Source: Candidatus Gastranaerophilales bacterium HUM_1 (GTDB lineage Bacteria > Bacteroidota > Bacteroidia > Bacteroidales > UBA932). Taken from it: a DNA stretch of 46,276 bases. The position numbers were made by a program, and so were the translations under genes. The stretch covers positions 1-46,276 of the forward strand of contig CAVIXF010000341.1 of NCBI GenBank assembly GCA_963646585.1, in the 5' to 3' direction. The notes beneath the pieces were generated by a model that had not been told where the DNA came from, made no database searches, and saw only the letters and a list, made by a program, of their open reading frames with translations. Every line of letters starts with the position of its first letter. Positions within the stretch are counted from its first letter, which is position 1. Positions 3,974-46,276 of the stretch are shown one piece after another.

Positions 3974-3982
3974 GAGGGCATA

Positions 3983-4309
3983 ATGACCTATCAACTCTGG
4001 GACAAAGAATCCCCGATCTACGACATCACCGCCGAACAGGCGGTAATCAACAATCCGCTGTACGGGAGCGAAAACAGCTACCTTATCCTCCGTGACGACG
4101 GGTCAATTCTCGACATTCTGCCGATATCGACGCTTCGGGAGTTGACCGGCAAAGACGACAACGCGACCGACGAGGAAGTCTGCGAGGCGTACATCGCGCA
4201 GCTCACCGCGACGCCGGAGCCGGTCGGAGACCTCGCCGAACTCTCCGCTAAGGTCGCCGACCTCGAAAAGCAGCTCGCCGTGGCGAAAATCTTACTGGGG
4301 GTGGAATGA
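3983..4309 (+). CDS. Small tail-associated protein with C-terminal coiled coil
   Basis: GGAGGG SD; LAELSAKVADLEKQL heptads; follows the fibre gene. Confidence 0.5.
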   Translation: MTYQLWDKESPIYDITAEQAVINNPLYGSENSYLILRDDGSILDILPISTLRELTGKDDNATDEEVCEAYIAQLTATPEPVGDLAELSAKVADLEKQLAVAKILLGVE

Positions 4310-6471: not shown

Positions 6472-7265
6472 AAGGCATCGACATCTCCAAACACAACACA
6501 ATCCGTAGCTTCCCGGCGCTGAAAGCCGAAGGCATCGCATTCTGCATCATCCGCGCGGGCTTCGGCACAAGCGTCGACCCGAAATTCGCCACGCACATCA
6601 AAGCGGCGAAAGACTGCGGAATGCTTGTCGGCGTGTATTGGTTTTGCTACGCCCGCGATACCGTCGAGGCGCGGCGGGAGGCTGAGGTCTGCGCGACCAC
6701 CTTGAACGGGTGCAAGCTCGATCTGCCGGTGTTTTACGACTTTGAGTATGACACCGAAAGATACGCCGCAAAGACCAAGGTGAAGTACGACACCAAGTCA
6801 CGGACGGACATCATCGAAACATTTTGTGCCGAAATCACGAAGCGCGGGTACAAAGCGGGGGTGTACACGAACCCCGACTACTGGCTGTACAAGCTGAATT
6901 CCGACCGGCTCGCGAAGTGGCCGCTGTGGATCGCGGCTTACAGACAGGCAGACTGCAAGGCGTCATTTGCGACCACCTCGCCGTCTGATCTCCCTCCGGC
7001 ATACCAGAACGCCATGATATGGCAGTTCGGCAAGTGTAAATTCACGAAAGCCGTGGGGGATGTGGACATCAACTATGGGTACGGCATCAAGCCCCCCGCG
7101 AAGAAGACCTACAAAGTCGGCGACCAGTACACCATCAAATCCGGCGACGTCTACACCACCGGGCGCAAAGTTCCGGCGCGTGTCGTCGGGAAGGTTTGCA
7201 CCATCAAGCAAGTACGCACCGGCGCGATACTGCTCGCGGAAATCAATTCCTGGGTGGCGGTATGA
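6468..7265 (+). CDS. Endolysin, GH25 muramidase
   Basis: KGIDISKHN, VFYDFEYD, IWQF and DVDIN GH25 motifs. Confidence 0.92.
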   Translation: MKGIDISKHNTIRSFPALKAEGIAFCIIRAGFGTSVDPKFATHIKAAKDCGMLVGVYWFCYARDTVEARREAEVCATTLNGCKLDLPVFYDFEYDTERYAAKTKVKYDTKSRTDIIETFCAEITKRGYKAGVYTNPDYWLYKLNSDRLAKWPLWIAAYRQADCKASFATTSPSDLPPAYQNAMIWQFGKCKFTKAVGDVDINYGYGIKPPAKKTYKVGDQYTIKSGDVYTTGRKVPARVVGKVCTIKQVRTGAILLAEINSWVAV

Positions 7266-9432: not shown

Positions 9433-9495
9433 TTCGAGAAAAATATATTTTTTTCTCGAAAACCCCTTGACAAAATCGAGAAAGTATGGTATAAT
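9433..9495 (+). promoter_or_regulatory. Consensus sigma-A promoter with palindromic operator
   Basis: TTGACA 9467-9472, 17 bp, TATAAT 9490-9495; TTCGAGAAAAA..TTTTTCTCGAA at 9433-9460 and a TCGAGAAA half-site in the spacer. Confidence 0.85.
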
Positions 9496-9511
9496 ATATA
9501 TGTAAACAAGA

Positions 9512-14371: not shown

Positions 14372-14984
14372 ATTTTATACTTGCATTATAAATTAATTCT
14401 TCGAGCTTGTCGCGATCCCATAGCACAACCCCTGTCTCTTTTGCGAGAATCTTTGCATTCTCGCTGAAATACAAGTTGGTTATGACAACCGCGGAATCCG
14501 CATTGTAGTGAATGCGCCCTGAATATATCTCTTGAACCGGTTTGAGCCCGATTCTGCTGCCCGGCGAATACCTCTTGCATTGAATCGCATATTTCAAGCC
14601 GTTCTTATGCGCGATTATGTCTGTACCGTAATCGCCGCTTGCAACAGTCACTTCGACGTGCTGAAATCCGTTTTTGCGAAGCAACTGCGCAATATAGTGC
14701 TCGAACATATGCCCTTCCATGTAATCGATATCATGCCAGTCGATTTGATGATCCGGCGATGGTAGAGCGGCGTTCTCAATGCGTTTTCTCTCGGCGTAAT
14801 TCGCTAAAGCTTCACAGGCTGCTAAAATCACAGGAAGCAATAAGTGCAGTATCTTAACTATAGCAATTATAGATAAAATTGCAACTACAACTTTCCAGTA
14901 ATTAACAAGAATCGCAAACGCAAATATCCCGACCGCTATGGTAAATGTGCATCCAACGTCCGACTTCGACGATCTCCTACTCAT
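14370..14984 (-). CDS. Membrane-anchored Mrr-like restriction endonuclease-domain protein
   Basis: FEHYIA..SGDYGTDII..AIQCKRY Mrr_cat motif; N-terminal TM segments. Confidence 0.85.
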   Translation of the reverse strand: MSRRSSKSDVGCTFTIAVGIFAFAILVNYWKVVVAILSIIAIVKILHLLLPVILAACEALANYAERKRIENAALPSPDHQIDWHDIDYMEGHMFEHYIAQLLRKNGFQHVEVTVASGDYGTDIIAHKNGLKYAIQCKRYSPGSRIGLKPVQEIYSGRIHYNADSAVVITNLYFSENAKILAKETGVVLWDRDKLEELIYNASIK

Positions 14985-19888: not shown

Positions 19889-20003
19889 GCCGCTGTGCAC
19901 AGGGCACAAAAACACAAAGTACATTCCGGGAGGGTAAATACCTATCCCCGATACTATCCTTCCGGAATCAATGCTGCTATCGGGGAGAAAAGGAGTAGAA
20001 TCA

Positions 20004-20447
20004 ATGAACACCAAGCTTATGTTTTCATCGGAGAAAGAGGACTGGGAAACGCCACAAGACTTCTTCGACGAGCTGGATAGAGAATTTCATTTCACGCTTG
20101 ATGCGGCGGCTTCGCCCGAAAACGCGAAATGCGGCAGCTACTACACGAAGGAACAAGACGGGCTTGCACAAAGCTGGGACGGGCACACCGTGTGGATCAA
20201 CCCGCCATACGGGCGCTATACAACGGGACTATGGGTTAGGAAGGCATACGAGGAGCACAAACGTGCAGGATGCACAATTGTCATGCTGCTACCCGCGCGA
20301 ACCGATACGATATGGTTCCATGATTTCGTGCTCGGGAAAAGCAAAATCAGATTCATTAAAGGGCGCTTGAAGTTCAGCAACTGCAAAGATCCCGCACCAT
20401 TTCCATCTTTGGTGGCTATATACGGAGGCAAAGACGATGAACGATAA
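20004..20447 (+). CDS. Phage DNA N6-adenine methyltransferase (Dam family)
   Basis: DWETPQ, FTLDAAA, NPPY, LLPARTDT, GRLKF motifs. Confidence 0.92.
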   Translation: MNTKLMFSSEKEDWETPQDFFDELDREFHFTLDAAASPENAKCGSYYTKEQDGLAQSWDGHTVWINPPYGRYTTGLWVRKAYEEHKRAGCTIVMLLPARTDTIWFHDFVLGKSKIRFIKGRLKFSNCKDPAPFPSLVAIYGGKDDER

Positions 20448-22248: not shown

Positions 22249-22577
22249 AGATCAAAGAAATAACCGAAGAAGCAATAATATTCGACAACGGCAACACCAT
22301 CACGTTCTGGCACGAGCAGTGCTGCTGCGAGATGAATTATGCCGACTTCGCTCAGCTCGACGACATAGCGCGAAACACGGAATTCGACGAAAACCTTGAT
22401 TTTGAGTTCGTCGAGGAACAGGGTTTCCGCTTCGGGAATCAGCCGAGCAGGATGTTCTTCGTTCCGTGCTACTCGGTGCAGAGCGGCTATTACAGCTACG
22501 AAATAACCATTATGTACAACAACGTCGAGGTGCTGTCCGGCATCTGCAATGAACCGGAATGCGAATGGGATTGTTGA
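22245..22577 (+). CDS. Hypothetical acidic protein
   Basis: 110 aa; HEQCCCE motif. Confidence 0.7.
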   Translation: MKIKEITEEAIIFDNGNTITFWHEQCCCEMNYADFAQLDDIARNTEFDENLDFEFVEEQGFRFGNQPSRMFFVPCYSVQSGYYSYEITIMYNNVEVLSGICNEPECEWDC

Positions 22578-22590
22578 AGGGAGAAAACCG

Positions 22591-22797
22591 ATGATAAAAG
22601 CAAAGCTTGACCACAAGAAAGATATCTGCGAGATCGAGGTGCGGGGCAAAATTGCCGAGATCACAAACGAAGTCGCGAACATCGTCCAGAACGTCTATGT
22701 GGCATTGGACGAACAGCACAAGGCACTCTTCAGGCGCGCACTCATTCAGGCAATCGCAGAAGGAGAACTGCTCAGCGAGGGAGGACAGTGGCGATGA
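22591..22797 (+). CDS. Hypothetical protein
   Basis: GGGAG SD. Confidence 0.6.
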   Translation: MIKAKLDHKKDICEIEVRGKIAEITNEVANIVQNVYVALDEQHKALFRRALIQAIAEGELLSEGGQWR

Positions 22798-23087
22798 ATG
22801 CTAAACTCGCAACCCTCATCGTTAAAATCCTCGACTTCATCGCGGAGCACCCGGAACTCGAAGTTGACTTCGATATCTGGCGCGTCGGCTCCGGGCGTGA
22901 ACTCCGGGCGTCGTTCTGCTACAACCTTCGCAGCGATTCGGACGCGCTCGGAATGCCGGTGAGGAAGTGCCGGTACATAGAAAATGGGCGGCTCATCAAG
23001 TCAATGGATTTCCTCGCGTCGGAGGACAATTTCAGGCTCCTCGTCGAAGGGCTTGAAAAATTGGAGGCGAAGCTCAATGATCATTAA
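22788..23087 (+). CDS. Hypothetical protein
   Basis: GGAGG SD; coupled in the operon. Confidence 0.6.
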   Translation: MAMNAKLATLIVKILDFIAEHPELEVDFDIWRVGSGRELRASFCYNLRSDSDALGMPVRKCRYIENGRLIKSMDFLASEDNFRLLVEGLEKLEAKLNDH

Positions 23088-23889
23088 AGATTCCATCACC
23101 GAATACCACGCAAAGCCGAGTGTCAGCAAGACGAAGCTCTGGCGACTTCTGAGCGACACCCCGGCGAAATTCAAGTGGCTTGAAGATCATCCCGAACCGC
23201 CGACCGCCGCTATGCAATTTGGCTCCGCACTGCACAAGTACGCGCTCGAGCCGGACGGATTCTTTGACGAGTACGCCGTCGCACCGCAATGTGATAGGCG
23301 AACCAAAGCAGGGAAGGAAGAATATCAGGCTTTTGTAGATAGTGCACAAGGCAAGGCAGTTATTTCTGCGGACGACATAGTGCTTATCTCCGAAATGACC
23401 GCTGCTATCAGAGAAAACCCCCGCGCCGACTTCCTTCTCCGGGGCGAGGTCGAAACATCCTACTACTGGCAGGACGAAATGACCGGGCTTGACTGTCAGG
23501 CGCGTCCCGACTGCGTGAAGATGATCGACGGCAAAGCGCTGATTGTCGACCTGAAAACCTGCGCGAGGGCTGATACCGAAACGATGGTGAAGCAAGCCTA
23601 TGCCCTCGGGTACGATATGCAAGCCGCCATGTTCATCGAGGCGGTAAGCAGAGAACGCAACGTCGGGTGCGACTTCTTGTTCGTCTGCATTGAGAAGGAG
23701 CCGCCATACCTCATCAACATTTTGCAAGCCGACGATCTCATGATCAAGAGCGGGCAGGACAGATTCCGGGAAGCTATCGGGATTTACAAATCCTGTCTCG
23801 ATTCCGGAAACTGGTACGGGTATGAAGGCGCGTTCGGGATGGTGAACACGCTCGGACTGCCGAAATGGGTTGAGAAAACACTGGAATGA
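23077..23889 (+). CDS. RecE-like PD-(D/E)XK exonuclease (DUF3799-like)
   Basis: FGSALH, CQARPD, IVDLKT, YDMQAAMF; upstream of the annealing protein. Confidence 0.85.
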   Translation: MIIKDSITEYHAKPSVSKTKLWRLLSDTPAKFKWLEDHPEPPTAAMQFGSALHKYALEPDGFFDEYAVAPQCDRRTKAGKEEYQAFVDSAQGKAVISADDIVLISEMTAAIRENPRADFLLRGEVETSYYWQDEMTGLDCQARPDCVKMIDGKALIVDLKTCARADTETMVKQAYALGYDMQAAMFIEAVSRERNVGCDFLFVCIEKEPPYLINILQADDLMIKSGQDRFREAIGIYKSCLDSGNWYGYEGAFGMVNTLGLPKWVEKTLE

Positions 23890-23917
23890 AATTTAATTAA
23901 TTAAAGGAGCACAGAAA

Positions 23918-24598
23918 ATGGATAACGTACAAGAAATCATCCCCGCGACTGCCGAACAGACCGTCGCGCCGATCAACACCGCACCGATGAACGTCACCAA
24001 TATCTGGGTCGACAAGGACGCATTTGAACAGACGCAGCGCGTCGCGGTCATGCTGTCAAAGTCGCAGATGATCCCGGAGAAGTACCAGAACAAACCCCAG
24101 GACTGCTTCGTCGCTATCGAAATGGCGGCTCGCGCCGGACTCTCGCCGCTCGCCGTCCTCCAAAACGTCGATGTGGTGAAGGGAAAGCCTCGCTGGAGCG
24201 GTCAGGCCTGCATGGCTATCATCAACTCGTGTGGGCGCTTCCGCGACGCCCATCCGGTCTACACCGGCGCGAAAGGCACTGATAACCGCGCTTGCTTTAT
24301 CCGCGCAATCCGTATTTCGGACGGCGAAGTCGTCGACGGAACCGAAATCTCCCTGAAAATGGCAGCTGCCGAAGGCTGGATGAGCAATCCGAAGTGGAAG
24401 AATATGCCGGAGCAGATGCTTTTCTACCGCGCGGCGGCATTCTTCGCGAGGATGTACTGCCCGTCGGAACTCCTCGGCGCGATAGTCGAGGGCGAGCCGG
24501 AGGACATCGAAGCGTCCAGGCAGAAACAGACCGGCGCGTCAGCGACTATGACAGCCGCCCTCGACGCCGCAATCGCTGCCGGAAAGGAGAAAAAATAA
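23918..24598 (+). CDS. RecT-like single-strand annealing protein
   Basis: SQMIPEKYQNKPQDC..LQNVDVVKGKP..WKNMPEQML; between exonuclease and SSB. Confidence 0.75.
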   Translation: MDNVQEIIPATAEQTVAPINTAPMNVTNIWVDKDAFEQTQRVAVMLSKSQMIPEKYQNKPQDCFVAIEMAARAGLSPLAVLQNVDVVKGKPRWSGQACMAIINSCGRFRDAHPVYTGAKGTDNRACFIRAIRISDGEVVDGTEISLKMAAAEGWMSNPKWKNMPEQMLFYRAAAFFARMYCPSELLGAIVEGEPEDIEASRQKQTGASATMTAALDAAIAAGKEKK

Positions 24599-25047
24599 TG
24601 CTGAACAAGTGCACCTTCCAGGGCAGATTCACCGCCGACCCGGAGCTGAAACAGACGGCGAGCGGCGTCTTCTTCTGCAACTTCGACGTCGCGTGGAGCG
24701 AAAAATACAAGGAAGTCGAATCGACCTGCTTCCTGAAATGCCGCGCGTGGAGAACGACGGCGGAATTCCTGTCGAAATACTTCCACAAGGGCGACCAGGT
24801 CATCGTCGAGGGGCGTCTCATCACCAACTCGTGGACAGACGACCAGGGACAGAAACGCTCCATGATAATCTGCGACGTCGACAAATGCCACTTCTGCGGC
24901 GCGAAGAGCGGCGCTCAGGGCGCGGGGAACTATCAGACGAGTAACTATGCTCCCCAACCGCAAACGACCGCCACAGCCCCCCACAGCGCGTCACAGGACG
25001 TTCCTAACTTCGAGGTTCTGCCCGAGGACGACGTGCTGCCGTTCTGA
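24598..25047 (+). CDS. ssb: Single-stranded DNA-binding protein
   Basis: GRFTADPELK..FHKGDQVIVEGRL..DDVLPF tail. Confidence 0.95.
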   Translation: MLNKCTFQGRFTADPELKQTASGVFFCNFDVAWSEKYKEVESTCFLKCRAWRTTAEFLSKYFHKGDQVIVEGRLITNSWTDDQGQKRSMIICDVDKCHFCGAKSGAQGAGNYQTSNYAPQPQTTATAPHSASQDVPNFEVLPEDDVLPF

Positions 25048-25060
25048 GGTGGGGTGAAAT

Positions 25061-25522
25061 ATGACAATTCAGGTCGATTCGAGGGAGAAAGCCCACATCA
25101 TCGCGGGGATAATCCGGTATTTCGACGAGCAGGGAATAAAACATTATTCCTCGAAACTCATCGTCGGCGACTATATGAACCTTGACAATCCGAAAGTGAT
25201 TTGTGATCGCAAACACAATTTGTCAGAGCTTGCCAACAACCTCACCAACGATTCCGGGCGGTTCATGCGCGAGGTGCGGCTCGCGAAGGAACTCGGAATT
25301 CACCTCGTCGTGCTGTGCGAGCACGGCGGCTGGTGCAAGTCGATTCGCGACGTCAAAGACTGGCACAATCCGATGCAGGGGAAAATTCCATACGCTATAA
25401 GCGGGAAAGAGCTTATGGAGCGCATCTACAAAGTGCATATCGCGTACGGCGTCGACTTCCTGTTCTGCGACAAGCGCTGCACCGGGCGGCGGATCGTCGA
25501 AATTCTGGGGGCAAAGCTATGA
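25061..25522 (+). CDS. ERCC4-domain nuclease
   Basis: IQVDSRE..LIVGDY..DRKHNLSEL. Confidence 0.85.
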   Translation: MTIQVDSREKAHIIAGIIRYFDEQGIKHYSSKLIVGDYMNLDNPKVICDRKHNLSELANNLTNDSGRFMREVRLAKELGIHLVVLCEHGGWCKSIRDVKDWHNPMQGKIPYAISGKELMERIYKVHIAYGVDFLFCDKRCTGRRIVEILGAKL

Positions 25523-26124
25523 GCAACTACCCCCGTTACGACGTGGAGGCGGTCAAGGCGGCCGTCTCCGTCCCCGACGCGCTCGAACGGTACGGCGACT
25601 TGTCAAAACGCCGCGGAAACCGCTGCCCGTGCCCTATTCACGGCGGCAAGGACAACAACCTCGCGTTCCGGGACGATTCTTTTCACTGTTTCGTCTGCAA
25701 CTGTGGCGGCGACGTCATCACGCTGGTCGAGAAGATTTTTAATCTTTCCTTCCCGGACGCCGTGCGAAAGCTCGCGGAGGATTTCGGGGTCGCGCCGGGC
25801 GTTGATCCGGAGGCTGCCCGGCGGCGGCAACTCGCGGCTGATGCACGGAAGCGCCGGGTCGAGCGCGAGAAAGACGACTTTCGGCGGCTCACAGCGTTTT
25901 ATCACCAGGTGCAAGACCTTCCACAGTCCCCGCTCCGCGACCGGTATGTCGGCACCCTCGCGGCGACTATCGACGACATTATCCGGTGCGGAGACGCGAG
26001 CAGCTACCCGGTCGATGAGATAATATCAACCATGCGGCAGGGGCTGCAATGGGAACAGCGGTCAAGAATATCTGTTCATTCCGTGCAACTATCCGCCCAA
26101 CCATTTCACGAAAGGACGTCATAA
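25519..26124 (+). CDS. CHC2 zinc-finger (primase ZBD-like) protein
   Basis: CPIH..FHCFVCNCGGDVITL. Confidence 0.85.
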   Translation: MSNYPRYDVEAVKAAVSVPDALERYGDLSKRRGNRCPCPIHGGKDNNLAFRDDSFHCFVCNCGGDVITLVEKIFNLSFPDAVRKLAEDFGVAPGVDPEAARRRQLAADARKRRVEREKDDFRRLTAFYHQVQDLPQSPLRDRYVGTLAATIDDIIRCGDASSYPVDEIISTMRQGLQWEQRSRISVHSVQLSAQPFHERTS

Positions 26125-26127
26125 ACC

Positions 26128-27966
26128 GTGGCTGAAATCCTTGAACCGAAAATTAAAGACCTCCCGGCGTGGACGCTCGAGGATTTCGAGAACGCCGTCC
26201 CGCACAGGTGGCTTTACGGCAACTATTACAAGAATCCTTTTACATACCGGCGTGCAATCGTCAAAATAGACGAAGCGGCACGGAAACTCGGCTATCCCGG
26301 GTTCAAAGCCGAAATGCGCGACTATGTGAAAGAATTCGGCGACGGCAAGGTAAACGAGAGCGACTATACCAACTCGACCGAGTTCACCGGGCAGCCTATC
26401 GAACTGAACTGCGGTAAGTACATTTGTACGGATGCGGGCGTTTCAGTTCCGTCCCTCGGCGAAGTCACGACTATCTGCCCGCACCCGATTCTGATATCCG
26501 GGCGACTTGTCAATCTCGATTCGGGGGAAGTCCGGCTCGAGGTGTCGTTCAAGCGGTCGGCAGAATGGCGAACCGTCGTCGTCGAGAAGATCATCCTCGC
26601 GTCGGCGGCGAAGATCATCGACCTTGCCCGGCTCGGGATCGCGGTCGATTCCGAGAACGCGAAAGCTCTTGTCAAGTACTTTACCGACCTCGAAGCATGG
26701 AACTATGACCGGCTCCCAGAACGGCATTCCGTCGCGCGGGTCGGCTGGACGACTTCCGGAAAATTCGTGCCATACGCCGATTCTGTCGAGTTCGACGGCG
26801 CGCCCGGATTCAGGGCTGTGTTCGATTCCTTCCACCCGGAGGGAGACCGTGAAGCCTGGTTCAAAGCCGCCTCGAAAGCCCGGAACGAGAGCACCATTGC
26901 GCGGATCGTTCTCGCCGCCTCCCTCGCGTCCGCATTGGTTAATCCGCTCCACGCGCTACCATTTTTCGTGCACGTCTGGGGTAGATCGGGCAACGGCAAA
27001 ACCATGCTGTTAAAGCTCGCCGCGTCCGTCTGGGCGTCGCCCAACTCGTCGGAGGGGTATGTGCGGAACTTCAACTCGACTATCGTCGGACTGGAGACCG
27101 CCGCGGGGTTCTTCAACTCCGCTCCCCTCTGCGTGGACGAGCTGCAAGTCGTGAAAAACCGGCGCGACTACGACGATATAATCTATATGCTTTCCGAGGG
27201 GCAAGGGCGCTCCCGCGGGTCGAAGGACGGGTCTTTTCAGCAGCTCAAATCCTGGCAGAATACCATCATCACGACAGGCGAAATGCCGATCACGAGCGAC
27301 TATTCCGGCGCGGGCGCTATCAGCCGAATCATCGAAATCTCCTGCGGCAAGGAGCGGCTTCTCAGCGACTATCGCGGGCTTTCCGACACGCTGTCCCACA
27401 ACTGGGGCTTCGCAGGGAAGGAATTCGTCGAAGGGCTCACACCACAGGTGCTCGAAGCGGCGAAGAAAGTGCAGGAAGAGTACCGCACGGCATTCGAGGC
27501 GTCAGCGACTACCGAAAAGCTCGCGCTCTCCGCGTCGCTGATCCTCACGGCGGATGCTCTCGCAGAGCTTTTAATCTGGCACACCGGCACGAGCCTGTCA
27601 GCGACAGAGCTTGCAAAGTATCTGCCGACCGAAAAAGAGGTCGACACCAATCAACGCGCGTTGGAATGGCTTTACGGCACCATTGCGGAGAACGAGGGCA
27701 AATTCGACTTCTCCGGCGATTCTATCCCGCGCGAGGTGTGGGGCGAATACAAGACTGACGGATATGACCGTCCCGGAGTGGCGATCATCTCGTCGGTGCT
27801 CAGCCGGATCATGCCCGAGGCGGGGTTCAACCCCACAGCGTTCCGGCAATGGGCAGCTACGGAGGGCTATCTTCGCCGCGACGCGGAGGGCAGATCAACC
27901 TTCATGGTTCGCATCCACGGCAAGCCGCCCACTCGGTGTGTGTGGCTGTACCTGGACGACAAATAA
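26128..27966 (+). CDS. DUF927-family replicative helicase/ATPase
   Basis: Walker A GRSGNGKT, Walker B LCVDE, IITTGE. Confidence 0.85.
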   Translation: MAEILEPKIKDLPAWTLEDFENAVPHRWLYGNYYKNPFTYRRAIVKIDEAARKLGYPGFKAEMRDYVKEFGDGKVNESDYTNSTEFTGQPIELNCGKYICTDAGVSVPSLGEVTTICPHPILISGRLVNLDSGEVRLEVSFKRSAEWRTVVVEKIILASAAKIIDLARLGIAVDSENAKALVKYFTDLEAWNYDRLPERHSVARVGWTTSGKFVPYADSVEFDGAPGFRAVFDSFHPEGDREAWFKAASKARNESTIARIVLAASLASALVNPLHALPFFVHVWGRSGNGKTMLLKLAASVWASPNSSEGYVRNFNSTIVGLETAAGFFNSAPLCVDELQVVKNRRDYDDIIYMLSEGQGRSRGSKDGSFQQLKSWQNTIITTGEMPITSDYSGAGAISRIIEISCGKERLLSDYRGLSDTLSHNWGFAGKEFVEGLTPQVLEAAKKVQEEYRTAFEASATTEKLALSASLILTADALAELLIWHTGTSLSATELAKYLPTEKEVDTNQRALEWLYGTIAENEGKFDFSGDSIPREVWGEYKTDGYDRPGVAIISSVLSRIMPEAGFNPTAFRQWAATEGYLRRDAEGRSTFMVRIHGKPPTRCVWLYLDDK

Positions 27967-28035
27967 CTATCGTTGGCGAATATGTCAAATTCGATGGCTG
28001 TTCGCCAGCGACTATTGTGCAAGTTTGTTTCGGCG

Positions 28036-28307
28036 GTATCACAGTATCGCCCTTTGTATCAGACCGCAGATACGCCGAAACCCGCATAAAACCTGGACTT
28101 TTTGGAGGTGTATCACAGTATCACTCAAAAATCGATTGCACGCTTATATACGCGCGTAAAAAAATTTGAAATACAAAACATGCTCGCGCGTATGTATAGT
28201 ATAGTATGTGATACATGTGATACAAGTGATACATATATAAATAAGCCAGTATTCATGGGCATTTTCGAGTATCACTTAAAACGGGCTTGCCCGAAACAGA
28301 GTGATAC
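28036..28307. other. Probable replication origin with GTATCAC iterons
   Basis: GTATCAC at 28036, 28110, 28118, 28269; GTGATAC at 28208, 28217, 28226, 28301; AT-rich core after the helicase gene. Confidence 0.7.
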
Positions 28308-28335
28308 TTAGTGATGGATTACGAAAGGAGATCAC

Positions 28336-29163
28336 ATGGACGAAGAGAAGAAAGCCGGAGCGAAGAGCGCGGCACAAGGCAAGGCGACTGGAGCTGGAGC
28401 GGACAACCCCGCACCGAAGAAGAGAGGCAGACCGAAGGGCAGCACGAAGCCGAAGCCACCGAAGAAGCCGAAAGAGAAGACGGTCAACTCCTACGCGAAG
28501 CGGAAAGCGACGGAATACGCAGTCGAGATAGCCGAACGGGTCACCGATGACGAGAGCAAGAAAGCGATCATCGCCGCACTGGACATCCCCGAAGAGGATA
28601 TGCCTGCCCGAGACCCGAAGTACCCGACGCACAAGAAGCCCCCTGTCGGGACGAACCCGAGAAGATGGTCGCCCGAAACGGATGAAGATCGGGCGCTGGT
28701 CAGCCAGATGCTTCACGAGCTGTTGACCGAGTACCGGAAACCACCGGTGCGAAGCGATGAGGAACTCGCGCAGAGGTTCAGCGACTATTACATTCAGTGC
28801 GCTGAGGAAGGAAGGACGCCCGTATGGGAAGAAGCATGCCTGAGCACAGGGTACACGGCGGGGTCGCTGTGGAGGTGGGAATGTGGGATTGAGCGGGGGT
28901 TCACCGATATGAGCGGCGAATTGGTTAAAAAGGCTAAAGCTTTTCAACAGGGTTTTGACGCAAAACTTGTCACGGCCGGGAAGATGAATTTTTTGGCATA
29001 TTGCTTCCGCTCGAAGTGCTATTACGGGATGCGGGATAACGCAGAATTGCCCGAAACTACGCGAAATCCGATGGGTGAGGCGAATCTCACGCCGAAGCAG
29101 CTGCAAGAAAGATATTTGCAGGGAATGAGGGAGAGCGACTATGAAGACAAGACCTTGAAGTGA
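28336..29163 (+). CDS. terS: Terminase small subunit (probable)
   Basis: KKRGRPK hook, EELAQRFSDYY..CLSTG..KCYYGMRD pattern; position upstream of terL. Confidence 0.65.
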   Translation: MDEEKKAGAKSAAQGKATGAGADNPAPKKRGRPKGSTKPKPPKKPKEKTVNSYAKRKATEYAVEIAERVTDDESKKAIIAALDIPEEDMPARDPKYPTHKKPPVGTNPRRWSPETDEDRALVSQMLHELLTEYRKPPVRSDEELAQRFSDYYIQCAEEGRTPVWEEACLSTGYTAGSLWRWECGIERGFTDMSGELVKKAKAFQQGFDAKLVTAGKMNFLAYCFRSKCYYGMRDNAELPETTRNPMGEANLTPKQLQERYLQGMRESDYEDKTLK

Positions 29164-29266
29164 GGCAAAAGGTTTGATTTTCGACAGTCGAAATGGGCTG
29201 CTCAGTGATATGTTGCTAAAAGTATTGTGCAATATGACGAACTGGTTTGACGTTCTCTGACATTCG

Positions 29267-29342
29267 AGCGACTATTGCCCGAGCGACTATCAGACGGTCA
29301 GCGACTATCAAGCGACTATCGCGAAAAATTATCAGCGACTAT
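29267..29342 (+). repeat. 5x AGCGACTAT repeats (candidate pac region)
   Basis: Copies at 29267, 29282, 29300, 29311, 29334; another at 29134 inside terS. Confidence 0.85.
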
Positions 29343-29494
29343 TGCGAACCCGGAAAAGAAAAATCCGGTTTTTGAAACTCGCAGAAAAGTTTTTCAAAAC
29401 CGGGCAGGAAATTTTTCGGAAATCGGCGGGAAATTGAACAGGTTTCGAGGGGCTGTCCGGGCGGCGGGCGGCCTCTCTCGCCGTGTAGGGGGCA

Positions 29495-29845
29495 CCTCGA
29501 GGCGGCAGAGCTACACGGCGGGCGGCAGCGTATGACCGCACAGGACGCGCACAGGCGGCGCACAGCGGGCGGAAATGGGCGGGGCGGTATATTTACCCTC
29601 TCGAGGGATTAAACACGCTCACGGGGCTTGTAGTGGCTCACAGACATATGCAGCCTCGAGGGCGTCACGGGGCGGCGCGGATCATGCCGGGCGCAGGGGC
29701 GGCCGTGCACCCTCTCGAGGCGGCGGACGGCGGGCATAGGGCTGTGAGGCTCTGTGAGGCTACGCGCAGGGCGTTTGCGCTGCGGGTGGTATAGATACCC
29801 TCTCGAGGCTCTGCGGGCGTCCTGTGGGCTTGTAGCGCGTCACAG
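29495..29845. repeat. CTCGAGG-containing imperfect repeat units
   Basis: Five CTCGAGG; two units GGTATA..TACCCTCTCGAGG..GGGCTTGTAG..TCACAG. Confidence 0.6.
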
Positions 29846-29852
29846 CGTGGGC

Positions 29853-29920
29853 GCAAAAAAGCCCCGGCAGTCCGGACGGGCTACCAGGGCATAAAAAGAC
29901 CGCCCACGCGGGGCGGTCGG
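29853..29920 (-). terminator. Tandem intrinsic terminators of the leftward island
   Basis: Minus strand GACCGCCC-cgcgt-GGGCGGTC-TTTTT and GCCCTGGTAG...CTGCCGGGGC-TTTTTT. Confidence 0.75.
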
Positions 29921-29923
29921 GGG

Positions 29924-29992
29924 TTATGAGCGGTGCGCGAGCTCCAGCAGGATCAGCACCGGCACTATCAGGATGTACAGCACTACAAGCAC
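29924..29992 (-). CDS. 22-aa hydrophobic peptide MLVVLYILIVPVLILLELAHRS
   Basis: GGAGGTGA SD, own promoter and terminator; too short for the ORF track. Confidence 0.65.
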   Translation of the reverse strand: MLVVLYILIVPVLILLELAHRS

Positions 29993-30011
29993 GCTATCAC
30001 CTCCCGCACAC

Positions 30012-30040
30012 AGTATAGCACATCGGCGGGCGGATGTCAA
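30012..30040 (-). promoter_or_regulatory. Sigma-A promoter for the 22-aa peptide
   Basis: TTGACA-17-TATACT with extended TG. Confidence 0.75.
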
Positions 30041-30046
30041 GGGGGG

Positions 30047-30385
30047 TCATGCGGTCACGCTCGGCTGCGCTGCCTCCATGCGGCGCATGGAGTTACGGAT
30101 GGCGGTCAGCGTGGTCACGCTGCCGTCGCGGTAGTACTCGCCGGACGCGTAGCAGTGCGAGCAGCTCTCGCGGTAGTGGTACGCGGCGGCGTATGTGTGC
30201 CCGCCCTCCGCCCACTCGACGCGGTCGCGGTTGTGCTGCTCCTCGTGCCAACGGCGGGACGCGGCAGTGCCCGCGGGCGTCCACCAGTAGGCACTCTTGC
30301 AGGTCTCCGCCTGTGCTACGATCTCCGCCACGGCGGCGACGGTCTCGGGGGTGTATGCGTCCGGTATAAGTATCTTTTTTGCCAT
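30047..30385 (-). CDS. Hypothetical protein (anti-defence candidate)
   Basis: AAGGAG SD; lies in the TTC-depleted island. Confidence 0.7.
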   Translation of the reverse strand: MAKKILIPDAYTPETVAAVAEIVAQAETCKSAYWWTPAGTAASRRWHEEQHNRDRVEWAEGGHTYAAAYHYRESCSHCYASGEYYRDGSVTTLTAIRNSMRRMEAAQPSVTA

Positions 30386-30394
30386 GATATGCTC

Positions 30395-30425
30395 TCCTTC
30401 TCCCGCCATAGCCGGGCGGGGCGGC
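30395..30425 (-). promoter_or_regulatory. SD-abutting pseudoknot, copy D
   Basis: GCCG-CCCCGCC-CGGC-TATGGCGGG-AGAAGGA. Confidence 0.6.
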
Positions 30426-30438
30426 GATAAAATTAGTC

Positions 30439-30621
30439 TTACTTTGCCATGCTATACAGCGCGTCCGCAGTGATCCGCAGGGCGTCCAGGACGCGATAAG
30501 CGCGGTCTTCGGCGGCTGTGTCTGCCGCCTCGTCTGCCGGGCGTCTGAGGCCGCATGCGCGGCGGTAGTCGCGGCGATCCTTTACCCATGCTATGATCTC
30601 CAGTGCTTTATCTGCCGTCAT
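30439..30621 (-). CDS. Hypothetical protein
   Basis: 60 aa, overlaps the upstream gene end. Confidence 0.55.
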   Translation of the reverse strand: MTADKALEIIAWVKDRRDYRRACGLRRPADEAADTAAEDRAYRVLDALRITADALYSMAK

Positions 30622-31267
30622 GCCCTCGCCCCCCCTCTCGTGCGATCTCGCGAGTGGTGATGATCCACTCTGCCAGCAGACGGCCGCGGGTCGCGGTGTC
30701 TGCGCCTCTGCAAGCCTCTGCAAGCTCACGGACGCCCACAGCCGGGACGCCCGCCGCGGGGCGGTAGCCAGTGCAGATGGTCAGCCCCGCGATCACGTAT
30801 ACGTCACAGTTCCAGCCGTACACACCCGCCGTGTAGTAATCGGGACGGATGCCAGCCAGCGCGTCTTGCAGATCGCAGTAGCCCACGCGGACGATACGAC
30901 GGCCAAAGTAACGCTCCTCATCACGCAGCCAGCCCGCAGTTACTTGCCGCGTGGGACAATGGCGGTATGCGTCACGCTTTAGGGCTATGCCGTCCATAGC
31001 GTATGCGATCTCTGCTGCAAGCTCGCCGCTCTCTGCCACCCTCTCGGCGGTCTCGCTCTCCGGCTCTGCTGCTGGTACGGTCCAGCCCTCCGGCACAGTC
31101 ACGACGGGCTGCCCGGGTTTCGGGTGGCTCATGGTCTCGGTGCAGCCGATGACCTCGCACCCCTTTACGGTGTAGTAGGCGGTTGCCTGTTCTGCGGACT
31201 CTGCGATCACAAGGTTCGCGGAGTAAATGTCGTTGCCGTTGCTGTAGGTGATTTCATAGGTTTTCAT
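30608..31267 (-). CDS. Hypothetical protein (anti-defence candidate)
   Basis: AAGGAG SD; YYTAGVYGWNCDVY..ICTGYRP; first gene after the consensus promoter. Confidence 0.75.
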   Translation of the reverse strand: MKTYEITYSNGNDIYSANLVIAESAEQATAYYTVKGCEVIGCTETMSHPKPGQPVVTVPEGWTVPAAEPESETAERVAESGELAAEIAYAMDGIALKRDAYRHCPTRQVTAGWLRDEERYFGRRIVRVGYCDLQDALAGIRPDYYTAGVYGWNCDVYVIAGLTICTGYRPAAGVPAVGVRELAEACRGADTATRGRLLAEWIITTREIAREGGRGHDGR

Positions 31268-31315: not shown

Positions 31316-31344
31316 ATTATAGCACACTTTTTTGCTGTTGTCAA
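31316..31344 (-). promoter_or_regulatory. Consensus sigma-A promoter, leftward
   Basis: TTGACA-acagcaaaaaagtgtgc-TATAAT with A-rich UP element. Confidence 0.88.
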
Positions 31345-31568: not shown

Positions 31569-31597
31569 TTGACATCAGCATAATTATGTGCTATAAT
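31569..31597 (+). promoter_or_regulatory. Consensus sigma-A promoter, rightward
   Basis: TTGACA-tcagcataattatgtgc-TATAAT. Confidence 0.88.
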
Positions 31598-31674: not shown

Positions 31675-31935
31675 ATGGGGATAACGGAGATAATTCAGGG
31701 AATTCGCAAAGAGAAGAAAGTGACCTACGACCAGCTCGCGAAAGCGACGGGGGCGAAGTCATACACCAACGTGAAGAACGTGCTGTCGCGCGACGGTTCG
31801 GTGAATGTTGAGACGGCGGTAAAGCTGCTTGAAGCGCTTGGGTATGAAATGGTCATTCAGCCGAAGAAGCAGGGACGCAGACCGGACGGGCAGCAGGTCG
31901 TGGCGATCCCCGAGAAGGGAGGGGACGAGCAGTGA
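31675..31935 (+). CDS. XRE-family HTH regulator
   Basis: IRKEKKVTYDQLAKATG..VETAVKLLEALGYE. Confidence 0.8.
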   Translation: MGITEIIQGIRKEKKVTYDQLAKATGAKSYTNVKNVLSRDGSVNVETAVKLLEALGYEMVIQPKKQGRRPDGQQVVAIPEKGGDEQ

Positions 31936-32519
31936 CGTACGCATATGTCAGAGTCTCGACCATCGAGCAGAACGAGGCGCGGCAGATAGACGCGCTCGAG
32001 GCGTCCGGCATCACATTCGACCGGGTGTTCATGGACAAGCAATCCGGCAAAGACTTCAATCGTGCCGAATGGCAGGAGCTTCTCGGGACGATTCGAGGCG
32101 GCGACCTCCTCGTTGTGAAGTCCATTGACCGCCTGGGGCGCGATTATGAAGGCATCATCGAAATGTGGCGGAAGATAACGAAAGAGATCGGCGCGGACAT
32201 TTACGTTCTGGATATGCCGATACTTGACACGCGAAAGAACAAGGATATGCTCGGAACGTTCATCTCCGACCTCGTTCTCCAACTGCTGTCATATGTCGCG
32301 CAGACCGAGCGTGAGAACATCAAGCAGCGCCAGGCGGAGGGGATAGCTTCCGCGAAAGCCCGCGGCGTGAAGCTCGGGAGACCATGCGCGGAGATATCCG
32401 CGAGCGCGTTCGAATCATACCGCGAAAAGGTTGAGCGCAAAGAAATATCCGTCACTCAGGCTTGCCGGGAACTCGGAATTTCAACCGATACATGGTACCG
32501 GCGTGTGAAAGCGGCATAA
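31932..32519 (+). CDS. Serine recombinase (resolvase/invertase family)
   Basis: YAYVRVST..EARQ, VKSIDRLGR, C-terminal HTH. Confidence 0.95.
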   Translation: MTYAYVRVSTIEQNEARQIDALEASGITFDRVFMDKQSGKDFNRAEWQELLGTIRGGDLLVVKSIDRLGRDYEGIIEMWRKITKEIGADIYVLDMPILDTRKNKDMLGTFISDLVLQLLSYVAQTERENIKQRQAEGIASAKARGVKLGRPCAEISASAFESYREKVERKEISVTQACRELGISTDTWYRRVKAA

Positions 32520-33038: not shown

Positions 33039-33185
33039 GGCTGCGAACCGCAACCGGCTTTCCCGAAAAGGAAGGACAGCGAGCAGATACCGCAAACGTT
33101 CACCTGACCGCGTGAAGCGGTCACGGAATAACAAACGCATCCCGCACCGGCATTGTGCCGCGCGGAGTACCGAACCCCTATACTT

Positions 33186-33237
33186 AGAGCGCCCAGAGCG
33201 CCATTTTCAGAGGAGAGTGGCGTCTTGGGCGTTTTTT
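33186..33237 (+). promoter_or_regulatory. AGAGCGCC x2 hairpin/terminator covering the probable terL SD and start
   Basis: 20-bp stem (one mismatch, several G-U) with AGAG loop, then T6; AGAGGAG and in-frame TTG 33225 lie in the loop and 3' arm. Confidence 0.75.
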
Positions 33238-35000
33238 CATGTGAAGATACTGGAAATAAAAAATCAAAAAAGGCAAAAAAAGGGAATAAAGCGATAATCC
33301 CCGGTTTTGAGAACTGGAACGACCGGCTGCCGGAGTGCGTCACGCTGTGCGAGGCTATCGCGGCGTACGGGACGGACAGCCTTTCGGTCGCGAAAGACTA
33401 CTTCGACGCGCTGAGGGGGCTCGCGCAGGACAATTCGGCGGAATCGTACGAGGAAGAACTCGCCTACATGGTGGCGAAAGGGAAAGAATTTTTTGACGTC
33501 GTAAATCGTATGCTCGCGAGGTCGGCCGCCGCGAGGACGTCAGCCGCGCCGGAATGGTACGAGCTGAAACGGAAAGTCTGCCTTCTGCTCGCGCCGCACT
33601 CGTTCGACCACTATATGCAGTACGTCGAATGGAACAGAGAACCGTCGCGGAAATTCTGGGTGCCGAGAAGAAGCGTCCTCATGGGGCTGTGCAACGATCT
33701 GCAAGACCTCGAGGAGCATAGGATTAAATTTCTCGGGGTGAGTATGCCGCCTCGTGTCGGAAAATCCACGATTTGTATATTTTTCCTGACCTGGCACATG
33801 GGACGACATCCGGACGACGCGTCCGCTATGGGCGGGCACTCCGACACGCTCGTGAACGGGTTCTACGGCGAGCTGAACGCGGTGCTCGACCCGGACGGCG
33901 AATACCTCTGGCACGACGTGTTCCCGCACGCGCAGATCGAAAGCCGGTCGGCGAAATACCTGCAAATCAACATCAATCACCCGAAGAGATTCCCGACGAT
34001 GACGTGCAGATCGGCGGAAGGCACGTGGACGGGCGCTATCGATATCTCACGGGACGGCATCCTTTACGTCGACGACCTCGTGAAAGACCTCGAGGAATCG
34101 CTGTCTCCCTCCCGTCTCGACGCGAAATACAACATCTACCTGAACCAGATGAAAGACCGTATGAAGGACGGCGCACTACAGCTGATGGTCGGTACGCGCT
34201 GGAACGTCATGGACCCGCTCGGACGTGTGCGCGAACAGTACAGAGACAATCCCGAATACCGGTTCACCGTCATTCCCGCGCTCGACGCGAACGGAGAATC
34301 CAACTTCCAGTACGACTACGGCGTCGGATTCTCGACCGAATACTACCGCGACATGAAAGCGTCAATCGACGACTGCACATGGTGCGCGAAGTACCAGGGC
34401 GCACCGTACGTCCGCCAGGGTCTCGTCTTTCCGCCGGATTCACTGCTCCGCTACAACGGCGTGCTACCGGGCGGATCTCCGGAACGCATTATCGCCGCGT
34501 GCGACGTCGCGTGGGGCGGAGAAGACTATCTGTCAATGCCCATCGTCTACGTGTACGGCGACGGCTCCATGTACTGCGTCGATGTGGTGTTCTCGAACGC
34601 GAACAAGGTATTCACACAGCCCGAAGTGGTCGGCAAGCTGCTGATTCACCGCCCGCATCAGGTACAGTTCGAGGCGAACAACGGCGGAACCGAATATGCG
34701 CAGACGGTTGACGAAATGCTCCGCGCGAAAGGGTGTTCTCTCAACATCTCGACGCGACGCGCTCCCGGCAACGCCTCGAAGCTCTCCCGCATCATCCAGT
34801 ACGCGCCGGATATCGCGAAGATTCACTTTCTCGACTTCGACCACTCGACGCCGGAATACCGCTCGTTCATCGAATGGCTCTGTTCTTTCGTCTCGCTCGG
34901 CAAGAACGTCCACGACGACGCGCCCGATTCGCTCGCACAGCTGATGGACTTAGCAACCGGAAACTGGGGCATTGTCTCGGTTCAGAAACGGGTATTCTGA
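33225..35000 (+). CDS. terL: Terminase large subunit (start uncertain)
   Basis: MPPRVGKST Walker A, LYVDD Walker B, CDVA and HDDAPDS nuclease motifs. Confidence 0.93.
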   Translation: MGVFSCEDTGNKKSKKAKKGNKAIIPGFENWNDRLPECVTLCEAIAAYGTDSLSVAKDYFDALRGLAQDNSAESYEEELAYMVAKGKEFFDVVNRMLARSAAARTSAAPEWYELKRKVCLLLAPHSFDHYMQYVEWNREPSRKFWVPRRSVLMGLCNDLQDLEEHRIKFLGVSMPPRVGKSTICIFFLTWHMGRHPDDASAMGGHSDTLVNGFYGELNAVLDPDGEYLWHDVFPHAQIESRSAKYLQININHPKRFPTMTCRSAEGTWTGAIDISRDGILYVDDLVKDLEESLSPSRLDAKYNIYLNQMKDRMKDGALQLMVGTRWNVMDPLGRVREQYRDNPEYRFTVIPALDANGESNFQYDYGVGFSTEYYRDMKASIDDCTWCAKYQGAPYVRQGLVFPPDSLLRYNGVLPGGSPERIIAACDVAWGGEDYLSMPIVYVYGDGSMYCVDVVFSNANKVFTQPEVVGKLLIHRPHQVQFEANNGGTEYAQTVDEMLRAKGCSLNISTRRAPGNASKLSRIIQYAPDIAKIHFLDFDHSTPEYRSFIEWLCSFVSLGKNVHDDAPDSLAQLMDLATGNWGIVSVQKRVF

Positions 35001-45709: not shown

Positions 45710-46276
45710 AACTCAAAGTCTCTTACGCCGACGTCGCCGTCGGGGCGAAAGAAAACTTCGCCCCGACGGCGGAGGGTCAGGCAAGCATATCCACCCCGGC
45801 ACTCCTACAGGGCATGCAGACGCCGATGTACGCGAACCCGTGCGAGATATACTCCGTCCTTCTCGATGGCTCTCTCGAAGTCCCTCCGGACGATGTGAAA
45901 TACGCTCTCGTGTCGGATGACCTCTCGGACGCGACCGACGGCAGCTTCGAAACGCCGCTCATCCTCACGCTTACCGCGACCGGGCAATACACCTCCCAGG
46001 GCATCACGCTAGTATTTGACGAGACCTCGAACCGGTACGCGACGGCGCTCAGTATCAAATGGTATCGCGGCGACACGCTGCTCTCCGAAAAGAGCTACAC
46101 GCCGGACAGCCCGAACTACTTCTGCGCGAACAAAGTCGAGAACTACAGCAAGCTGATAATCAGCTTCACGGCAATGAATATGCCGCGCAACCGGCTGTAT
46201 CTCACGGATATCCTGTACGGCCCTGTCCGAAACTTCGGGCGGGACGAAATCGAAAACTTCTCCCTGCTCCAGGAGG
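45706..46276 (+). CDS. Tail tip/baseplate hub protein, 5' part (continues at 1-1104)
   Basis: AAGGAG SD, ATGA overlap, open to the window end. Confidence 0.75.
   Translation, partial: MKLKVSYADVAVGAKENFAPTAEGQASISTPALLQGMQTPMYANPCEIYSVLLDGSLEVPPDDVKYALVSDDLSDATDGSFETPLILTLTATGQYTSQGITLVFDETSNRYATALSIKWYRGDTLLSEKSYTPDSPNYFCANKVENYSKLIISFTAMNMPRNRLYLTDILYGPVRNFGRDEIENFSLLQE
46210..46276 (+). repeat. Terminal direct repeat, right copy
   Basis: 66/67 identical to 1-67. Confidence 0.97.

Follow-up and report, generated by a model that had tools for sequence, protein, structure and literature searches.

Contig CAVIXF010000341.1 of assembly GCA_963646585.1, a stretch of 46,276 nucleotides analysed over its full length and called the window here, holds a segment of 1.7 kb in which the trinucleotide TTC and its complement GAA have almost disappeared. 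The segment covers most of a leftward operon of small orphan genes (A, B and C) in a phage genome, together with the non-coding DNA beyond them, and the depletion is seen on either strand, inside and outside coding DNA, and at in-frame as well as out-of-frame positions. With a probability of about one half, this desert reflects selected avoidance of the protospacer-adjacent motif (PAM) of type I-C CRISPR immunity in an immediate-early anti-defence island. A more specific picture, in which a clade of gut phages hides an immediate-early anti-CRISPR (Acr) island from the very system that it inhibits by stripping about 2 kb of every type I-C PAM, falls slightly short of an even chance.

A desert of one trinucleotide

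The interval from 29447 to 31118 (1672 bp), with TTC and GAA counted as a strand-symmetric pair, contains exactly four sites: GAA at 29572 and TTC at 30398, 30508 and 30810. The site at 30398 lies inside the GGGAGAAGGAG Shine-Dalgarno sequence 5' of the ATG at 30385. The whole contig has 1988 sites, or 43/kb. Spans of 1672 bp across it hold 71.6 on average (standard deviation 15), and the minimum of four is reached only at 29445–29447. No window outside the phage contig goes below 28, out of 19,198 taken from the 2.6-Mb assembly, and the desert is the most extreme TTC/GAA-poor window in 2.6 Mb.

Related words persist in the desert (TTG/CAA 18, TTT/AAA 22, TTA/TAA 17). A mononucleotide null, which keeps base composition, predicts 31.6 sites, and a first-order Markov null predicts 18.4, giving an observed-to-expected ratio (O/E) of 0.22 that is the lowest among the 32 strand-symmetric 3-mers. 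The Markov expectation is itself lowered, because the absent GAA and TTC account for most of the "missing" GA/TC and AA/TT dinucleotides. All eight listed 4-mers that contain GAA are depleted, and the listed GAAN and NGAA words about equally so, which identifies the 3-mer as the depleted unit.

The desert is also a sharp island of G+C content (GC), at 0.65 vs 0.556, and GC alone does not account for it. The 57 windows of the assembly matched for GC (0.635–0.675) contain 63.2 ± 11 sites with a minimum of 40, and GC-matched DNA ranges from 40 to 94 per 1672 bp. Eggerthella phage EL753P1 (GC 0.59) has 39.6 sites per kb, and its 500-bp windows of 63–73% GC hold 8–23. The rest of the phage genome is not depleted (43/kb, O/E 1.09). 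The initial annotation of this DNA had claimed four TTC/GAA in about 1670 bp and a loss specific to that word. The exact count and positions were reproduced, the retention of TTG, TTT and TTA and the lowest O/E of all 3-mers bear out the specificity, and the proposed check against matched nulls puts the depletion far outside both the GC-matched expectation and a codon-matched one (32.7 ± 4.1).

These values bear on a quite improbable account in which the depletion is a compositional by-product: cassettes that circulate as a pool among phages, and that come from a high-GC source of odd amino-acid and codon usage, would have passed it on without selection. The sharp GC island with its mosaic content would suit such an origin, and other AA/TT-containing 3-mers are also about 2-fold low. 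GC-matched DNA and the 59%-GC Eggerthella gut phage argue against it, since both keep the word at the frequencies given above.

The route of the depletion is the use of GAG for Glu, the loss of Phe with Tyr in its stead, fewer Lys, Asn and Ser, and a raised GC. Recoding of the four open reading frames (ORFs) of the desert with the phage's own codon usage gave the codon-matched expectation of 32.7 ± 4.1 sites, vs seven observed in the full-length ORFs. Most of these seven fall outside the desert, at the start of gene A (codons 1–26), and the coding parts within the desert keep three. Glu codons in the island ORFs are GAG 31 times and GAA three times, compared with 171 and 199 in 14 backbone genes. 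A single one of 410 residues is Phe (0.2% vs 3.6% in the backbone), and TTT is used only once. Tyr reaches 6.4% vs 4.2% and stands for Phe at aligned sites, partly offsetting its loss, while Lys, Asn and Ser are at about half the backbone level or below. Even with the scarcity of Phe already allowed for, in-frame TTC numbers 0 in the island ORFs vs 0.67 expected.

The depletion extends beyond codons. Within the desert, one in-frame site is present vs 17.3 expected, and two out-of-frame sites vs 11.0 ± 2.6, with 0 of 3000 simulations as low. The non-coding 477 bp at 29447–29923 contain one site, vs 7.9 by shuffling (P = 0.0016) and 5.3 by a first-order Markov model (P = 0.03). The out-of-frame and non-coding depletion therefore places the constraint on the nucleic-acid sequence and not on codons or tRNAs alone. 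This constraint acts on nucleic acid (DNA, possibly RNA) and extends into protein composition.

Selection at the level of translation, with tRNA-Phe(GAA) or tRNA-Glu(UUC) scarce or cleaved early, for example by an anticodon nuclease, would account for the near-absence of Phe even as TTT, for the excess of GAG over GAA relative to the rest of the phage, and for a Phe content of 0.49% (Tyr 6.0%) over 120 homologues of gene A. As a sole cause it is largely refuted by the out-of-frame sites and the non-coding stretch. In addition, the AcrIC5-like proteins of sister phages, described below, retain an invariant Phe, which is spelled TTT wherever the codons of a zero-site copy were read; the same tRNA reads TTT and TTC. 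Such selection is very improbable. The same features speak against a compositional by-product: TTC is the GC-richer Phe codon, yet it never occurs in frame; Phe is nearly gone, with Tyr at the aligned sites; and non-coding DNA and out-of-frame positions are depleted as well.

The island, its genes and its relatives

The desert has the replication module on one side and the gene for the large terminase, TerL (33153–34997), on the other. Its elements and immediate neighbours are listed below.

29267 to 29342, plus strand: cluster of AGCGACTAT repeats (putative "pac repeats"), just outside the desert
29445 to 31189, no strand: TTC/GAA desert as delimited by a likelihood-ratio scan; 1745 bp, 5 sites, GC 0.66
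29447 to 29850, no strand: non-coding, GC-rich (0.70) stretch that has CTCGAGG motifs and three GGnGGTATAnnTACCCTCTCGAGG copies
29863 to 29918, minus strand: two terminator-like hairpins at the end of the leftward operon
29924 to 29992, minus strand: 22-codon hydrophobic ORF (VLVVLYILIVPVLILLELAHRS) with its own promoter and a GGGAGGTGA Shine-Dalgarno sequence
30012 to 30040, minus strand: sigma-70-type promoter TTGACA-17-TATACT (11/12 match, TG-extended) that serves the 22-codon ORF
30047 to 30385, minus strand: gene C, 112 aa, in a variable third slot; Acr or anti-defence candidate by position only
30439 to 30621, minus strand: gene B, 60 aa, with the C-terminal motif DALRITADA(L/F)YSMA
30608 to 31267, minus strand: gene A, 219 aa, modular, with a small N-terminal alpha/beta domain, an acidic linker and a C-terminal domain
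31316 to 31344, minus strand: consensus promoter TTGACA-17-TATAAT (12/12, TG) that drives A-B-C, outside the desert
31569 to 31597, plus strand: divergent consensus promoter (12/12, TG), an inverted copy of the leftward promoter
31675 to 31935, plus strand: HTH_3 regulator, a possible anti-CRISPR-associated (Aca)-like repressor (Pfam HTH_3, E 3e-6)
31932 to 32519, plus strand: serine recombinase/DNA invertase (Resolvase, E 2.5e-28; phrog_125, E 3e-50)

The evidence for early expression comes from the three consensus promoters and the double terminators that bracket the island. The strong promotion claimed initially was confirmed, with genes A-B-C behind a 12/12 sigma-70 consensus promoter. Two accompanying claims stood in part. 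The proposed purge of PAMs from early genes agrees with the depletion in the body of the desert and fails for the promoter and for the start of gene A (~26 codons). The proposal of Acr candidates gains from sister islands that carry AcrIC5-family genes, and is not supported by A, B and C themselves, which match no Acr or other family.

Genes A and C, used as queries against IMG/VR and GenBank phages, gave ten close relatives with a full-length island (L002–L010 and L018) and one more, L011, whose sequence ends within the island. All ten have a desert at the same place, 1.7–2.5 kb long with 6–21 sites and a GC of 0.64–0.66, between flanks with 10–20 TTC/GAA per 300 bp. Counted by strand, each of these deserts holds 2–13 TTC and 2–12 GAA. 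The 11 deserts pooled (21.9 kb) have 5.3 sites per kb vs 46.1/kb in 105 kb of flanks, and the next-lowest 3-mers are only about 2-fold down.

The backbone of these phages is nearly alike (TerL 87–99% and helicase 80–97% identity), and the island is mosaic. Gene A differs in its N- and C-terminal domains and gene B in its N-termini, with the DALRITADA(L/F)YSMA motif common to relatives whose N-termini differ. The third slot holds a gene of 112, 171, 93, 79 or 68 aa. All these genes are poor in Phe and rich in Tyr. The C-terminal domain of gene A also exists as a standalone protein in low-GC phages, where it has 31–48 TTC/GAA per kb, with Phe at positions that are Tyr or Ala in the desert copies. 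From these comparisons, the depletion belongs to the island and not to the gene families in it, with unrelated cassettes keeping it. That non-homologous cassettes show the same depletion is a further point against a compositional by-product, which in turn draws some support from the close kinship of the relatives and from residual sites that show no excess of young variants.

The genes themselves give few clues to function. Gene A has 370 homologues, none annotated, and a conserved C-terminal domain (GYCDLQDAL..YTAGVYGWNCDVY..TGYRP). In a predicted model, its residues 1–58 weakly resemble the epsilon subunit of Firmicutes RNA polymerase (Z 6.2–6.5; root-mean-square deviation 2.3–2.5 Å over 50–57 residues) and T7 Gp2 (Z 4.7), with Z values below the level of trust advised for the fold-search tool; the likeness may be a weak lead to RNA polymerase binding. 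Beyond the N-terminal 58 residues no fold match was found, and ESM Atlas gave no usable hit. Gene C has 158 representative homologues, none named. Its predicted fold is confident (AlphaFold2 predicted local distance difference test score 92.5), and comparison of the model with PDB gave no clear fold match (best Foldseek E 0.09, best VIA Z 4.6). Fold-based assignment of genes A and C was dropped, the matches being too weak.

The remaining elements of the island vary in their conservation. The GC-rich stretch at 29447–29850 is about 83% identical in eight relatives (L002–L009), partial in L010 and absent from L018, and an Rfam search of the whole contig gave no match. The hydrophobic 22-codon ORF, with its promoter, Shine-Dalgarno sequence and two terminators (29924–30040), has a layout that we take to be reminiscent of type I toxins or small membrane peptides. 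Copies of AGCGACTAT with at most one mismatch lie at 29267–29334 (five) and at 29134 (one), and a cluster of 5–9 copies precedes the desert by 100–370 bp in 11/11 loci. All 20 such copies in the contig read along the plus strand (minus strand 0), and most lie from 22482 to 29334. A 275-aa protein nearby (28336–29160) has a pattern that we took to be small-terminase-like; PHROGs, Pfam, NCBIfam and PDB sequence searches were all empty, and the protein is not called TerS.

On the other side of the island, the rightward promoter drives the HTH_3 gene and the serine invertase. The HTH_3 gene was found in 1/10 relatives with a full-length desert (L007), and the invertase is not conserved beside the island (L007 97%, L009 36%, no match in the other relatives). 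The two divergent promoters form an inverted repeat (31315–31372/31541–31598; 58 nt, 76% complementary). Both hold TGTGCTATAAT and an AGCA..TGCT spacer and could be a common operator; a third stretch like this repeat lies at 9460–9498 (85% over 39 nt).

AcrIC5-family genes and the type I-C PAM

The one identifiable function in these islands comes from sister phages. The third-slot gene of L003 (68 aa) matches the Pfam AcrIC5 family (PF22147) with E 7e-4 and 20.1 bits, below the 27-bit gathering cut-off. Its database homologues, at 54–72% identity, carry PF22147 in 7/11 cases, and in the family alignment 11/12 members match it at E<=0.01 (best 1.8e-11). A profile of the family finds PDB 7yhr, "Anti-CRISPR protein Type I-C5", with E 0.022. 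An acrIC5-like gene lies inside the desert in five distinct sister loci (L003=L084, L081/L087, L083, L085 and L086; L081 and L087 are probably one phage). In each of them it contains 0 TTC/GAA, with GAG for every Glu and TTT for the invariant Phe. AcrIC5-family genes that sit in sister islands and are themselves free of TTC/GAA tie the island to pressure from type I-C. Orthologues of AcrIC5 are reported from Firmicutes and from Actinobacteria of the gut in the material cited from PMC7913775.

Outside the clade the pattern is mixed. In L088, an unrelated contig of 51% GC, a 254-bp site-free gap with a GC of 0.50 and dense flanks coincides with an acrIC5-like ORF; a gap at that GC, limited to one ORF, would be hard to obtain as a by-product of composition. 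In six other lineages the acrIC5-like gene has a normal count (10 TTC/GAA in L082, 5 in L089, 7 in Bacillus phage Mgbh1 gp12, 17 in L093, 7 in L094 and 6 in L095). A PAM-free acrIC5 gene as a general rule was rejected, only 6/12 distinct loci being site-free and five of those six coming from one clade. PAM-free acrIC5 genes thus appear to be a feature of this clade and perhaps of one more lineage.

The acrIC5-like genes adjoin packaging genes in four of the lineages whose neighbourhoods were annotated: the studied clade, L082, L089 and Mgbh1. L082 has the same invertase–TerL pairing, and in L089 the gene is divergent from terS-terL. In Mgbh1 (L091, NC_041879.1, 2008–5766) the unannotated AcrIC5-like gp12, 51.5% identical to that of L088, follows ArdA-like (gp4) and Ocr-like (gp5) genes and lies, in the left end of the record, upstream of both terS and terL. 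This neighbourhood, as judged from gene order, fits an anti-defence island that would lie near the packaging start. L089 (OBLI01000363.1, 51% GC) also has a 1.2-kb zone with 7 TTC/GAA (5388–6590; GC 0.49) that covers terS, the start of terL and intergenic DNA. Its divergent acrIC5-like gene lies about 400 bp past this zone, and its terL and portal have about 20 sites/kb vs 32–93/kb in the genes beyond the acrIC5-like gene. In gut phage L093 (MT835520.1), 560 bp at 3541–4100 hold one TTC/GAA at a GC of about 0.70; they lie upstream of a distant AcrIC5-like match, at a distance of roughly 900 bp.

The mixed company of the Mgbh1 gene, beside ArdA-like and Ocr-like genes, shows that such islands hold varied anti-defence genes, and it lends weight to an unlikely alternative, namely avoidance of a different factor, from host or phage, that recognises GAA/TTC in double-stranded DNA. 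Candidates are an undescribed nuclease or defence system, a half-site of a Type I restriction-modification system, a GAAC/GTTC system of the phosphorothioate type, a nucleoid or silencing protein, or a primase with a TTC/GAA start triplet; the AcrIC5-like gene would then be one cassette of a general anti-defence island. Depletion of a 3-mer on both strands at the level of DNA sequence suits any reader of double-stranded DNA, and acrIC5-like genes elsewhere are mostly undepleted. The phage, moreover, is shaped genome-wide by site avoidance, with palindromes found far below expectation (CTAG 3 vs 26.9, GGCC 46 vs 195, GCCGGC 1 vs 28.4, CTGCAG 0 vs 9.2, CCATGG 1 vs 11.6, GGCGCC 2 vs 15.6). The equal depletion of the listed GAAN and NGAA 4-mers stands against this alternative, as GAAC/GTTC or longer sites do not explain the pattern, and the only identifiable function of the island points to type I-C. 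To our knowledge, moreover, the CRISPR PAM is the only case in phage defence, or among DNA-binding systems, of a bare 3-bp word being recognised.

Avoidance of the type I-C PAM joins these observations. The consensus type I-C PAM is 5'-TTC (PMC7913775, PMC12174588), an identity that the initial annotation had stated and that PMC7913775 confirms in the material cited. TTC as this PAM, a sole identifiable island function directed against type I-C, and a depleted unit of 3 bp together lead to the PAM-avoidance reading. Type I-C would then be the selecting agent, genes A, B and C would be anti-defence proteins, and the island would be exposed earlier than the remaining genome. In a PAM-free island Cascade would be unable to bind and the adaptation machinery unable to take usable spacers, while the island genes would be expressed first to disarm type I-C immunity. 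With no PAMs in it, the first-expressed locus itself could not be hit or silenced. PAMs would have been removed by codon choice (GAG, TTT), by replacement of Phe with Tyr and by a higher GC, and cassettes entering the island would acquire the PAM-free property or already possess it. The island may be a counter-move to hosts that hold spacers against acr loci. Spacers of P. aeruginosa target acr loci disproportionately, more than other anti-defence genes, in the material cited from bioRxiv 10.64898/2026.10.15.759504, and such a bias would supply the selective pressure. A solitary-repeat RNA anti-CRISPR, as described in the material cited from PMC10651486, was set aside, with no search aimed at it: the I-C-like repeat of the array on contig C71 of the assembly ends in TTGAAAC, with a GAA, and the only GAA of the desert (29572) has another context.

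Several findings weigh against avoidance of the type I-C PAM. Purging 1.7 kb leaves the other 44 kb exposed at 43 sites/kb (O/E 1.09). About six TTC/GAA remain in the leftward promoter and at the start of gene A (~80 bp, ~26 codons), so a CRISPR RNA could still block the operon there. No Pfam, PHROGs or NCBIfam family and no known Acr matches gene A, B or C, the island of the phage under study has no AcrIC5 homologue, and among the 11 islands found with genes A and C only that of L003 has an acrIC5-like gene. The normal counts in six other lineages mean that PAM avoidance is not general to acrIC5 genes. Given the close kinship of the relatives (TerL 87–99%), their deserts count as about one evolutionary event plus L088, and the residual sites, kept in most homologues in 45/57 cases, as control 3-mers are, give no sign of ongoing purging; their frequency spectrum does not differ from that of the controls and was rejected as uninformative. 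The last two points concern the host. The phage contig is mis-binned, and therefore no type I-C system is tied to the phage. A check of the host's CRISPR subtype by spacer matching, suggested at the outset, came out negative: 564 spacers from type I-C-type arrays were compared with the phage and its relatives, and 0/564 matched beyond the 14–16 nt expected by chance. These spacers comprise 501 from arrays with the exact repeat of the metagenome-assembled genome (MAG) in which the contig was binned, including the MAG's own three, and 63 distinct ones from type I-C-type arrays of its family. The interpretation first offered for the desert, PAM avoidance around Acr genes, therefore holds in part: the specific depletion, the identity of the PAM, the promoters and the AcrIC5 genes of sister phages support it, and the phage's own genes, with no Acr match, and the spacer comparison do not.

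The contig itself, judged by its gene content, is a temperate 46-kb siphophage. It encodes an integrase, GH25 lysin, holin, Dam-type methylase, single-stranded DNA-binding protein, primase, DUF927 helicase, portal and large terminase. The Dam-family N6-adenine methylase lies at 19971–20444 (plus strand; E 4.6e-32), and a Mrr-type restriction endonuclease domain at 14373–14984 (minus strand; E 4e-30). Its ends (1–67 and 46210–46276) share 67 overlapping bases at 99% identity, which makes the assembly circular and the genome probably complete. By TerL, Clostridium phage Maintenon (46%) is the nearest named phage, followed by Eggerthella phage EL753P1 (36%). CATG has a median of 0/kb in MAG contigs above 15 kb (n=24), vs 3.1/kb in the phage contig (C341) and 4.4/kb in C342, a contrast that marks the phage contig as foreign to its MAG. 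GGCC shows the opposite contrast (phage 0.99/kb vs MAG 4.8/kb). One relative in the MAG's genus carries what by eye seems to be a SusC-type (Bacteroidota) receptor gene, whereas the phage uses sigma-70-type promoters and strong Shine-Dalgarno sites.

The MAG contig C71 has at its edge (1–281) a CRISPR array of four full repeats and a cut fifth, with a 32-nt repeat that ends in ATTGAAAC and that we take to be type I-C-like. The exact repeat is present in MAGs of many phyla, and I-C-like repeats occur in 10/301 genomes of the MAG's family. As evidence on the phage's host the array was ruled out, the phage contig being foreign to the MAG. No prophage relatives were found in 60 other genomes of the MAG's genus, and short DNA matches in seven other genomes of that genus were rejected as spacers, with no flanking repeats. 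A TerL search of 401 genomes in one class (that of G360) gave no hit at E<=1e-60. PF22147 was found in 0 of those 401 genomes, an uninformative result given that the control genomes were also silent, and PF09709 (Cas8c) was not found in the MAG, where the control was likewise silent.

Comparison with known systems

Genome-wide PAM depletion, early regions free of recognition sites and acr operons are already known, and the island shares features with each of them. Avoidance of palindromes, seen genome-wide in the studied phage, is likewise a motif avoidance driven by host defence. It concerns sites of 4–6 bp everywhere in the genome, whereas the avoidance of TTC/GAA is local and concerns a 3-mer. 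P. aeruginosa phages show genome-wide depletion of the type I-F PAM, CC, achieved partly through a G+C shift (PMC12174588, in the material cited). The island would resemble them in selection against a PAM with a G+C shift among the means. Their depletion is weak and spread out, whereas the island is depleted about 9- to 18-fold over 1.7 kb and the remainder has an O/E of 1.09.

The likeness to acr-aca operons lies in small orphan genes, a very strong promoter, a helix-turn-helix (HTH) gene nearby and interchangeable cassettes. In the canonical acr-aca layout the HTH (Aca) gene lies downstream. The island's HTH gene, in contrast, is divergent and present in 1/10 relatives with a full desert, and the island of the phage under study is without a recognisable Acr. 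A full-text literature search, with the hits judged by title and abstract opening, found no report of a local PAM-free zone at an acr locus. A narrow, sharply bounded PAM desert across an acr-type island, brought about in part through rewritten protein composition, is apparently unreported.

If this account is true, CRISPR selection can remodel the amino-acid make-up of phage proteins, here to an almost Phe-free set. The desert would be a signal, readable from sequence, that locates anti-CRISPR loci and hints at the CRISPR subtype of an uncultured host, and local deserts of PAM-sized words would flag undiscovered anti-CRISPR genes. The domains of gene A, gene B, gene C and the 171-aa cassette are offered as orphan families that are candidate inhibitors of type I-C. 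It also becomes testable whether acr loci are the weak point of Acr-bearing phages, an idea framed as a "time continuum" in the material cited from bioRxiv 10.64898/2026.10.15.759504.

The first-entering region of phage T5 is the closest precedent. T5 and BF23 resist restriction-modification types I, II and III and type I and II CRISPR if their first-step transfer (FST) region is without recognition sites (PMC10644984, in the material cited). Like the T5 FST region, the island would be a short, strongly expressed anti-defence block kept free of recognition sites. For the FST region, a terminal repeat of 10 kb, injection in two steps is proven, whereas the island belongs to a temperate 46-kb siphophage known here from sequence alone. 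Purging of a 3-bp PAM is not described for T5 in the material cited from PMC10644984, and a 3-bp word is what the island lacks. If the PAM-avoidance reading is correct, the island would be the CRISPR counterpart of T5's site-free first-entering DNA.

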